Part shown: in pieces, positions 8,096 through 12,301 of the stretch | Position numbering within the stretch: position 1 is the stretch's first letter | Layout of the letters: every line of letters begins with the position of its first letter | NCBI RefSeq assembly: GCF_003334315.1 | Contig: NZ_QOWR01000010.1 | Source of the DNA: Escherichia coli | GTDB taxonomy: Bacteria > Pseudomonadota > Gammaproteobacteria > Enterobacterales > Enterobacteriaceae | Length of the DNA stretch: 64,000 bases | Direction: 5' to 3' (one strand) | Position numbers and translations under genes: made by a program | Notes under the pieces: model-generated | The model's database searches: none | Told to the model about the DNA's origin: nothing | Seen by the model: only the letters and a program-made list of their open reading frames with translations

Positions 8096-8200
<105 letters not shown>

Positions 8201-8886: not shown

Positions 8887-10019
8887 TTATCAATAACGTC
8901 AAATTGGTGCTGGAAAACGAAGTGGTACACGGTTCACTGGAGGTGCAGGACGGCGAAATCCGCGCCTTTGCCGAAAGCCAGAGCCGCCTGCCGGAGGCGA
9001 TGGACGGCGAAGGCGGCTGGCTGCTGCCGGGGCTGATTGAGCTGCATACCGATAATCTGGATAAATTCTTCACCCCGCGCCCGAAAGTTGACTGGCCTGC
9101 CCACTCGGCGATGAGCAGCCACGACGCGCTGATGGTGGCGAGCGGCATCACCACCGTACTGGATGCCGTGGCAATTGGCGACGTGCGCGACGGCGGCGAT
9201 CGGCTGGAGAATCTTGAGAAGATGATCAACGCCATCGAAGAGACGCAGAAACGCGGCGTCAACCGCGCCGAGCACCGTCTGCATCTGCGCTGCGAACTGC
9301 CGCATCACACCACGCTGCCGCTGTTTGAAAAACTGGTGCAGCGCGAGCCGGTGACGCTGGTGTCGCTGATGGACCACTCGCCGGGCCAGCGCCAGTTCGC
9401 TAACCGCGAGAAGTACCGTGAATATTATCAGGGCAAATACTCCCTCACCGATGCGCAGATGCAGCAGTACGAAGAAGAGCAACTGGCGCTTGCCGCACGC
9501 TGGTCACAGCCTAATCGCGAATCCATCGCCGCAATGTGCCGCGCAAGACAAATTGCCCTCGCCAGCCACGATGACGCCACGCATGCCCACGTTGCCGAAT
9601 CACACCAGCTTGGCAGCGTCATCGCCGAATTTCCCACCACGTTTGAAGCAGCGGAAGCCTCGCGCAAGCATGGCATGAACGTGCTGATGGGCGCGCCAAA
9701 TATCGTGCGCGGCGGCTCGCACTCCGGCAACGTGGCGGCCAGTGAACTGGCGCAGCTTGGCCTGCTGGATATACTCTCTTCCGACTACTACCCCGCCAGC
9801 CTGCTGGATGCGGCGTTCCGCGTCGCCGATGACGAGAGCAACCGCTTTACGCTACCGCAGGCGGTGAAGCTGGTGACCAAAAATCCGGCCCAGGCGCTGA
9901 ATCTTCAGGATCGCGGGGTGATTGGCGAGGGCAAACGCGCCGACCTGGTGCTGGCGCATCGCAAGGGCAATCACATTCATATCGACCACGTCTGGCGTCA
10001 GGGGAAAAGGGTGTTCTGA
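8883..10019 (+). CDS. phnM: Amidohydrolase-family C-P lyase component PhnM
   Basis: 378 aa. ATGA overlap with phnL. Confidence 0.9.
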
Positions 10020-10998: not shown

Positions 10999-11757
10999 AT
11001 GAGCCTGACCCTCACGCTCACCGGCACCGGCGGCGCACAGGGCGTTCCGGCATGGGGCTGCGAGTGTGCGGCCTGCGCCAGAGCGCGGCGCTCACCGCAG
11101 TATCGCCGCCAACCGTGCAGCGGCGTAGTGAAGTTTAACGAGGCGATCACCCTGATCGACGCCGGGCTGCACGATCTCGCCGATCGCTGGTCGCCCGGAT
11201 CGTTCCAGCAGTTTTTGCTGACGCATTATCATATGGATCACGTCCAGGGGCTGTTTCCGCTGCGCTGGGGCGTTGGCGATCCGATCCCGGTTTACGGCCC
11301 GCCGGATGACCAGGGCTGCGACGATCTGTTTAAACATCCGGGCCTGCTTGATTTCAGCCACACGGTGGAACCGTTTGTGGTGTTTGATTTGCAGGGGTTA
11401 CAGGTCACGCCCCTGCCGCTCAACCACTCAAAACTGACCTTCGGTTATCTGCTGGAAACGGCACACAGCCGGGTGGCGTGGCTGTCTGACACCGCAGGCT
11501 TGCCAGAAAAAACGCTGAAATTTTTACGCAATAATCAGCCGCAGGTAATGGTGATGGATTGCAGTCACCCGCCGCGCGCGGATGCACCGCGTAATCACTG
11601 TGATTTAAATACCGTGCTTGCGCTGAATCAGGTTATCCGCTCGCCACGGGTGATTCTGACCCATATCAGCCACCAGTTTGATGCGTGGCTGATGGAAAAC
11701 GCACTACCGTCAGGGTTTGAGGTGGGGTTTGATGGGATGGAGATTGGGGTGGCGTGA
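10999..11757 (+). CDS. phnP: Metallo-beta-lactamase-fold phosphodiesterase PhnP
   Basis: 252 aa with the HxHxDH motif ([11 protein letters not shown]). Last gene of the operon. Confidence 0.9.
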
Positions 11758-11759
11758 TG

Positions 11760-11895
11760 AGAGGGAATGTGCGCGCTGGCCCCCTCACCCTAACCCTCTC
11801 CCCAGAGGGGCGAGGGGACCGATTGTGCTCGATATTGAATATTGCGCTCGTTTTCTCCCTCTCCCCATTGGGGTGAGGGGCGATGCCTGCTCCAT
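11760..11895. repeat. Pair of GC-rich imperfect palindromes flanking an AT tract
   Basis: ccctcaccctaaccctctccccagaggggcgagggga and ctccctctccccattggggtgaggggcg lie between the convergent phnP and yjdP genes. I did not confirm a repeat-family assignment. Confidence 0.5.
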
Positions 11896-11903
11896 ACCCA
11901 ACC

Positions 11904-12233
11904 TCATCGCCCATACTCATCTTCCATTCTCCGCTCTTCATCCTCCAGTTGCCGACGCTCCTGATCAAGCTGGCGCTGGCGATCGTCCAGCTGCCTGCGG
12001 CGATCTTCAAACTGGCGGCGGCGGTCGTCATATTGTCTGCGCCGATCGTCGCTCACTTCACGCTGCCAGCCGTCGTCGCGCGAATCTTCATAGTCTCGCC
12101 CACGGTCAGGGTTATAAGCGTCATTAATCGCCTGCTGAATATTGCCAATGGTGTCGTCGATAATATCGGCCTGGGCCGGAACGGTGGACAGCGTGAGCAG
12201 GGTGAATAAAAGAAATAGCGGAAAGCGTTTCAT
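11904..12233 (-). CDS. yjdP: Small secreted protein with Arg/Asp/Glu/Gln-rich periodic repeats
   Basis: 109 aa with signal peptide MKRFPLFLLFTLLTLSTVPAQA, then DDRRRQYDDRRRQFEDRRRQLDDRQRQLDQERRQLEDEERR. Confidence 0.8.
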   Translation of the reverse strand: MKRFPLFLLFTLLTLSTVPAQADIIDDTIGNIQQAINDAYNPDRGRDYEDSRDDGWQREVSDDRRRQYDDRRRQFEDRRRQLDDRQRQLDQERRQLEDEERRMEDEYGR

Positions 12234-12301
12234 TAGCCAACCTCAAAAAGAAACTCTATCCACATTAATCATTACTCATCCATGCAAGTAGTGGATGAAT
12301 C

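Follow-up and report, generated by a model that had tools for sequence, protein, structure and literature searches.

The intergenic region between the convergent genes phnP and yjdP of Escherichia coli is already known; it is a catalogued BoxC repeat accompanied by a decayed inverted partner, and the spacer should be labeled as a BoxC inverted pair (a type A unit together with a type B unit that lacks 12 nt) rather than as a terminator. We consider it probable that this pair is a neutral or selfish element, which most likely serves neither phnP nor yjdP and whose main effect is DNA instability. What we add to the existing catalogues is the identity of the second palindrome, which was confirmed when its intact allele was found, and a tally of six alleles across 5,426 complete E. 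coli genomes, which is absent from the parts of the two main catalogues (PMC4666352 and PMC5100583) that were available.

Within the window, by which we mean the whole 64-kb stretch of E. coli DNA that was analyzed, phnP, the last gene of the phn operon, occupies positions 10999 to 11757 on the plus strand and ends with a TGA stop codon at 11755 to 11757 (open reading frame [ORF] list and W3110 RefSeq annotation), and yjdP, which codes for a DDRRRQL repeat protein, occupies positions 11904 to 12233 on the minus strand with its stop codon at 11904 to 11906 (ORF list and RefSeq annotation). The spacer between the two stop codons is 146 bp long and holds both palindromes. The window is E. coli K-12, since 451 nt around the palindromes match W3110 and MG1655-derived records with 100% identity. 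The two strings quoted in a preliminary description of this DNA, ccctcaccctaaccctctccccagaggggcgagggga and ctccctctccccattggggtgaggggcg, are found at 11782 to 11818 and 11855 to 11882, respectively. Read on the plus strand, palindrome 1 (11781 to 11816) is CCCCTCACCC-TAA-CCCTCTCCCC-AGA-GGGGCGAGGG, and palindrome 2 (11857 to 11880) is CCCTCTCCCC-ATT-GGGGTGAGGGG. A repeat search linked the two by a 24-nt direct repeat with 88% identity (11794 to 11817 and 11857 to 11880), and the outer arm of palindrome 1 (11781 to 11793) and the G-arm of palindrome 2 (11868 to 11880) form inverted arms with 92% complementarity. On both sides, the distance from the hairpin to the nearest stop codon is 23 nt, with palindrome 1 next to phnP and palindrome 2 next to yjdP. 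The preliminary description had reported two GC-rich imperfect palindromes around an AT tract, and these are present as stated and far above chance: across the 64-kb window, CCCTCTCCCCNNNGGGG with up to two mismatches has 4 matches versus 0.22 expected (0 of 100 shuffles), and CCCTCNCCC-N3-6-GGGNGAGGG has 2 matches versus 0.00 expected, with no shuffle having any. Outside the spacer, the window contains no further match to either pattern. When the RNA folding check that had been proposed was applied to both strands, the region from 11755 to 11905 folded better than its shuffles on each of them (z = -3.5 and -2.45). Short ORFs cross the repeat at 11754 to 11876 and 11717 to 12127 on the plus strand and at 11785 to 11907 on the minus strand, reading …LTLTLSPEGRGD…, …PHPNPLPRGARG…, and …PLAPLGRGLG…, and similar peptides (PHPGPLPEGEGA and PSPRPSPGGRGS) come from motif-containing ORFs elsewhere (locus L062). 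The short ORFs through the spacer are merely translated repeat and a likely source of spurious protein predictions.

The suggestion that the palindromes belong to an intergenic repeat family other than REP was confirmed, and the family is a known one that goes by the names BoxC, PIT, TM_ECO (triplex motif), and HPG1/HPG2 (G-quadruplex-hairpin motif). BoxC was reportedly first noted by Bergler et al. in 1992 and surveyed by Bachellier et al. in 1999, and PIT elements are said to go back to work by Hoyne et al. in 2000 and by Hoyne and Maher in 2002. In the available text of Holder et al. (2015; PMC4666352), TM_ECO, BoxC (Bergler 1992), and the PIT element (Hoyne et al. 2000) are treated as one family, with the TM_ECO consensus 5'-CCCTCNCCC N3-6 GGGNGAGGG N3 GGGNGAGGG-3', and 23 MG1655 copies are tabulated in Table 1 of that work in NC_000913.3 numbering. 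The minus strand of window positions 11781 to 11816 is letter for letter the entry TM_ECO no. 22 of that table (CCCTCGCCCCTCTGGGGAGAGGGTTAGGGTGAGGGG, 4,314,285 to 4,314,320, "type A mm"), which Table S2 of the same source places between yjdP (88 nt) and phnP (23 nt). Kaplan et al. (2016; PMC5100583) also include this copy, under the name HPGQ 51 of group HPG1 (yjdP / 4314309 / phnP). Palindrome 1 contains the full three-arm TM_ECO consensus on the minus strand, and palindrome 2, which in K-12 has the C-arm and one G-arm only, falls outside the consensus on its own. A genome-wide search, as had been proposed, found the motif to be anything but unique: a 111-nt spacer query matched all 5,426 complete E. 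coli genomes, at 18 places in the median genome and at 21 in one MG1655 record. In addition, a 39-mer identical to the palindrome 1 region sits at tkt-ypfG, and the element is therefore a dispersed repeat. All six other E. coli BoxC copies that were fetched are intergenic, and the present copy lies between two stop codons. An Rfam scan of the region returned only matches to eukaryotic microRNA-type models, all with E values of >2 and the best scoring 17.3 bits where the gathering score is 137.

The palindromes had been distinguished from REP at the outset. That distinction stands, as the REP consensus GCCGGATGCGGCG has nine matches in the window and none within 11700 to 11950. REP/BIME and BoxC elements are alike in being short, GC-rich, imperfectly palindromic intergenic repeats that often sit in inverted pairs where two genes converge and become part of the transcribed 3' untranslated regions, but their sequences are unrelated. 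REP elements have a dedicated transposase (RAYT) and a documented mRNA-stabilizing effect; to our knowledge, BoxC has neither. With regard to the REP matches themselves, the minus strand between 62 and 274 carries the exact consensus at 62, 162, and 262, a spacing of exactly 100 nt, which looks like a tandem REP/BIME cluster. Plus-strand matches at 8102 to 8114 (no mismatch) and 9803 to 9815 (one mismatch), a few kilobases upstream of phnP, apparently lie within the phn operon region.

Palindrome 1 is the core of a BoxC type A unit on the minus strand that, with its conserved flank extensions, spans approximately 11762 to 11835, as an alignment against six further type A units of E. coli indicates. 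Types are distinguished by the second loop, which is TTA in type A and CCG or similar in type B. The 36-nt three-arm core, CCCTCGCCCC-TCT-GGGGAGAGGG-TTA-GGGTGAGGGG (11781 to 11816, minus strand; regular-expression match and TM_ECO no. 22), consists of a C-arm at 11807 to 11816, G-arm 1 at 11794 to 11803, and G-arm 2 at 11781 to 11790. In the alignment, conservation of the type A units extends about 15 to 20 nt beyond the core on each side, and on the G-rich minus strand the order is A-rich, GYGCNC, N5, and GT, followed by the core and an extension like AACAGGCCNGCACTGG. The sequence that follows palindrome 1, GACCGATTGTGCTC, is such a type A flank.

By the same kind of alignment, here with five K-12 type B units, palindrome 2 is a type B BoxC unit on the plus strand (11844 to 11880) from which 12 nt are missing. 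It comprises the 5' flank (11844 to 11856), the C-arm CCCTCTCCCC (11857 to 11866), the loop ATT (11867 to 11869), and the G-arm GGGGTGAGGGG (11870 to 11880). A 5' flank with the pattern GCNC…TTTTCT is common to the five K-12 units, and at this locus it reads GCGCTCGTTTTCT. The AT tract at 11820 to 11856 is made up of the conserved flanks of the two units and a 12-nt junction, namely, the type A flank CGATTGTGCTCG, the junction ATATTGAATATT, and the type B 5' flank. At hrpB-mrcB, fepB-entC, ygfF-gcvP, alx-sstT, and lldD-trmL, the A and B units are bordered by these same flank motifs, and A+B inverted pairs were found at five other K-12 loci when the units were fetched and aligned with their flanks (compare the available parts of PMC4666352). 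The deletion point of the type B unit lies within the GGGG at 11870 to 11873, and the lost 12 nt correspond to one G-arm plus a loop. Since the G-arm of palindrome 2 has the T variant typical of the last arm, and since the MMC-J-0078 strain retains a CCG loop before that arm, an intact ancestor of the form CCCTCTCCCC-ATT-GGGGAGAGGG-CCG-GGGTGAGGGG was predicted. This form is present at the locus in 63 genomes (96.8% identity over 62 nt), where all three arms are found; it can also be written ...CCCTCGCCCC-ATT-GGGGAGAGGG-CCG-GGGTGAGGGG.... One such genome is CFSAN061763, in which a gap of exactly 12 nt and two substitutions are all that separates the second unit and its flanks from those of K-12. 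In the intact allele, the A unit (TTA) and the B unit (CCG) lie on opposite strands, 39 nt apart. The locus is like the rest of the BoxC family in that palindrome 1 is an intergenic, multicopy member in inverted pairing with a type B unit, as at the five K-12 loci, but differs from it in that palindrome 2 appears in neither catalogue (PMC4666352 and PMC5100583), because it has only two arms in K-12.

The intact pair is one of six alleles in this spacer, which were counted with junction-specific queries against the 5,426 genomes and compared within E. coli, unrooted. It is found in 63 genomes. The K-12 form, in which 12 nt are gone between the two G-arms of B, is the majority form with 3,274 genomes (60%). 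The MMC-J-0078 form (162 genomes) has a deletion between the two hairpins that keeps the CCG loop of B and leaves a four-arm perfect palindrome, and the form of NZRM4169 and O157:H7 (353 genomes) has a deletion between two GGGGCGA repeats. In the DS566 form (495 genomes), the last G-arm alone remains in a 34-bp spacer, and in the form of Nissle 1917 and ATCC 11775 (1,010 genomes), a 27-bp spacer bears no trace of the element. Together, these alleles cover 98.7% of the genomes (5,357 of 5,426), and 1,505 genomes (28%) keep phnP and yjdP with no element-derived hairpin between them. The element-free spacer in 1,010 genomes counts for dispensability. This variability agrees with that published for the family, as TM_ECO loci were described as hypervariable among 56 strains, with partial deletions that tend to leave a stable hairpin (PMC4666352, available text). 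The surroundings of the spacer also vary: in NZRM4169 (locus 933 to 981), a hybrid sensor histidine kinase/response regulator, not rpiB, lies beyond yjdP, and at another locus (L002), a shorter gene of the RpiB/LacA/LacB family is found there. The yjdP-rpiB junction seems to be a site of island insertion or replacement; yjdP is also mentioned in the title of PMC10128022, of which the title was available.

One deletion with its end points in the repeated arms is enough to turn the intact pair into any of the element-bearing alleles. We infer that the near-identical direct and inverted arms promote slippage or hairpin-mediated deletions between them, and such arm-to-arm deletions would account for the allele series. 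Another DNA-level mechanism was put forward for the family by Holder et al. (2015), according to which an intrastrand triplex resembling H-DNA forms, with the C-arm and G-arm 1 paired and G-arm 2 as the third strand, so that replication stalls and the locus becomes a rearrangement hotspot. Palindrome 1 matches exactly the three-arm class II purine motif for such a structure, a triplex was shown in vitro by circular dichroism and nuclear magnetic resonance for other copies of the family, whose loci are hypervariable (PMC4666352, available text), and six alleles are found in this spacer alone. However, in vivo dimethyl sulfate footprinting detected no stable triplex according to the same text, the deletion end points all lie in short direct arm repeats for which ordinary slippage suffices, and the majority allele already lacks the third arm of one unit. 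We therefore regard a triplex as a quite unlikely cause of the changes at this locus.

At the RNA level, both palindromes are predicted to form stable hairpins. In the phnP-sense direction, the predicted energies are -23.0 kcal/mol for palindrome 1 and -18.2 kcal/mol for palindrome 2, and in the yjdP-sense direction, they are -31.1 and -16.3 kcal/mol, respectively. In the type A C-arm (11807 to 11816, minus strand), the central base G of the common E. coli "A mm" form mismatches G-arm 1 and forms a G·U pair with the third arm; consequently, the yjdP-sense hairpin of palindrome 1 predicted with ViennaRNA (-31.1 kcal/mol) pairs the C-arm with the third arm. The preliminary description had proposed that the palindromes probably act as a bidirectional terminator or mRNA stabilizer. 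On such a view, transcription of phn and yjdP would stop at the hairpins, or the 3' ends of the transcripts would be guarded from exonucleases, as with REP. The stability of the predicted hairpins (-16.3 to -31.1 kcal/mol), their position 23 nt past a stop codon of each of two convergent genes, and the placement of the 16 HPG1 copies of K-12, 6 of which are flanked by convergent genes and just 1 by divergent genes (PMC5100583, available text), are consistent with such a role. A GC-rich hairpin between convergent genes and near both stop codons also resembles an intrinsic terminator, but the required U-tract after and A-tract before the hairpins are missing from their positions: the hairpins are followed by ACCGATTG and CGATGCCT on the plus strand and by AGAAAACG and GCCAGCGC on the minus strand, with no U-tract on either. 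A scan for promoters and terminators from 11500 to 12300 found terminator-like sites only inside yjdP (12013 to 12030) and none in the spacer. Furthermore, the available text of PMC4666352, citing Hoyne and Maher (2002), reports that PIT elements act neither as promoters nor as terminators and leave RNA polymerase unaffected. K-12 copies also show no strand bias, are found upstream of genes as often as downstream, and include one inside the pst operon (PMC4666352 and PMC5100583, available text), and the 1,505 genomes mentioned above keep both genes with no such hairpin between them. Neither gene has an entry in the 3'-end tables of PMC7815308, which is weak evidence, as both may be poorly expressed under the conditions used. 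With no U-tract and a published lack of terminator activity, the terminator reading is not supported, and we consider it unlikely that the hairpins serve to terminate or stabilize these transcripts. Selection for a structure at the 3' ends would nevertheless also give the predominance of the K-12 allele (60%) and the symmetrical 23-nt spacing of the hairpins.

The four G-tracts of the yjdP-sense strand raise a further structural alternative, in which the element is a regulatory switch between G-quadruplex, hairpin, and duplex (Kaplan et al. 2016). A search of both strands by regular expression found the canonical G-quadruplex motif GGGGAGAGGGTTAGGGTGAGGGGG (G3+ N3 G3+ N3 G3+ N3 G3+) at 11780 to 11803 on the minus strand, and under the criterion of four runs of at least three G's with loops of 1 to 7 nt, it is the only canonical one in the 64-kb window. 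Circular dichroism evidence for both conformations exists for the family, of which the present copy is a listed member (PMC5100583, available text). Against this, ViennaRNA still prefers the hairpin at -31.1 kcal/mol when quadruplexes are allowed, and the support for the family comes from in vitro work. Moreover, the motif lies about 100 nt past the yjdP stop codon and antisense to phnP, with no obvious regulatory target, and the element is missing from many strains. A regulatory switch of this kind is therefore highly improbable at this locus.

The core of the unit is by no means confined to E. coli. Across 262 proteobacterial genomes, Holder et al. counted 3,610 copies, and they also noted related motifs in cyanobacteria (PMC4666352, available text); the cross-phylum matches found here extend this known wide distribution rather than change it. 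In IMG/VR, scanned with the query GAGAGGGNNNGGGTGAGGG, at least 153 sites were found, and among the matches listed, 126 of 153 carry the upstream CC-N-TC-N-CC arm. A hairpin-plus-arm pattern used on species-representative genomes was present in about a dozen genomes at least, which fall into 12 groups by record title. The matches listed come from Polaromonas (at least 40 sites), Hyphomicrobiales, Afipia, Pseudolabrys, a "Deltaproteobacteria" metagenome-assembled genome (MAG), two Gammaproteobacteria, Burkholderiales, an unclassified Pseudomonadota MAG, Verrucomicrobia, an unclassified MAG, and a Candidatus Gracilibacteria MAG, and inverted pairs 20 to 120 bp apart are common among those listed from outside E. 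coli. The motif is also found on 626 of 72,556 plasmids and in 6 of 50,697 curated phage records, and given the latter figure, the many IMG/VR matches do not show an association with phages.

Several of these loci deserve mention in their own right. In the Gracilibacteria MAG (L241 to L246, JALNXF0100000xx), the exact GC-rich three-arm core occurs in loci of 27% GC, with AT-rich flanks that differ from copy to copy and are unrelated to each other; because a chance origin is implausible in such loci, this core points to horizontal acquisition or selection. The putative viral contig IMGVR_UViG_3300031949_000016 (L091 to L096, 86.7 kb) has 11 copies, all in one orientation, and at about position 5936 of L092, a minus-strand ORF appears to stop 2 nt from the motif, so that a strand-linked constraint, through transcription or replication, is possible for this contig. 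Copies in the Deltaproteobacteria MAG (L164 to L174) and in the unclassified MAG GL140 (L214 to L240) share long flanks within each genome, e.g., TTTATCCCCTCTCCCCCAATGGGGGAGAGGGTTAGGGTGAGGGGGAAGTAATCT, and seem to be lineage-specific longer repeats built around the same core, like the approximately 70-nt E. coli units. Among the listed viral-contig copies (L007 to L126), the central base of the C-arm is T in 106 of 126, which gives a perfect hairpin, and G in 14 of 126. The Campylobacter phages A18a and A11a (MG065686.1 and MG065691.1) each have two places that match the 36-nt core, at best with 97% identity, which is odd for phages of an AT-rich host. Two further counts were not relied on: a crude gene caller placed 74 of 240 motif sites from GC-rich loci in genes, probably through over-long ORF calls, and an orientation ratio of 39 to 16 in viral contigs is dominated by a few multicopy contigs.

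The allele series and this distribution together invite the idea that the pair is a small mobile element, either MITE-like or mobilized in trans as REP is by RAYT, that inserted into the spacer and is now decaying. Presence and absence are polymorphic and include an element-free allele, near-identical copies share the arm mismatch and about 70 nt of flanks, and the same core recurs with unrelated flanks in distant phyla and on the plasmids counted above. However, although filled and element-free alleles both exist, the junctions in the E. coli strains, compared unrooted, show neither a target-site duplication nor terminal repeats. No transposase lies between inverted copies at the two loci examined, where only short, unconvincing ORFs were found at one (L178) and a glycine-rich ORF, which we take to be possibly phage structural, at the other (L062). 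The motif is very rare in curated phages, and in the available text of PMC4666352, Holder et al. report no link to transposons, phages, or plasmids. We thus find the mobile-element explanation doubtful. Similarly tentative is the notion that a core of about 33 nt (C-arm, loop, GGGAGAGGG, N3, and GGGTGAGGG) is an autonomous module shared across bacterial phyla, which draws on its presence, among the matches listed, with flanks that are unrelated or particular to a lineage in Beta-, Alpha-, Gamma-, and "Delta"-proteobacteria, Verrucomicrobia, Gracilibacteria, plasmids, and IMG/VR contigs. If true, such a module would imply either horizontal spread by a mobilizing activity or recognition by a universal cellular component, and the copy in E. 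coli would be one such insertion, now in decay. Conservation of the core across phyla is poorly explained by pure neutrality and suggests function or active spread; the identical core in very distant, even AT-rich, genomes is the only wider lead to come from this locus.

For the phnP-yjdP spacer itself, a neutral or selfish BoxC pair is the reading that we favor. BoxC is an intergenic repeat that is dispersed and prone to form structures, with no demonstrated part in gene expression. Here, the type A unit, on the minus strand and adjoining phnP, is intact, and a type B unit on the plus strand adjoins yjdP; the pair may be tolerated between these convergent genes because their spacer holds no promoter. 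In the K-12 lineage, the B unit has lost one of its two G-arms and become a plain hairpin. Both units are transcribed into the two 3' untranslated regions, where the stable RNA hairpins, which are probably not intrinsic terminators, could incidentally slow 3' exonucleases, and we infer from the data above that the pair has no function for the host and acts mainly at the DNA level. The allele series is a clean natural example of a three-arm repeat pair eroding via deletions between its own arms, and it supports the published link of these motifs to local genome instability.
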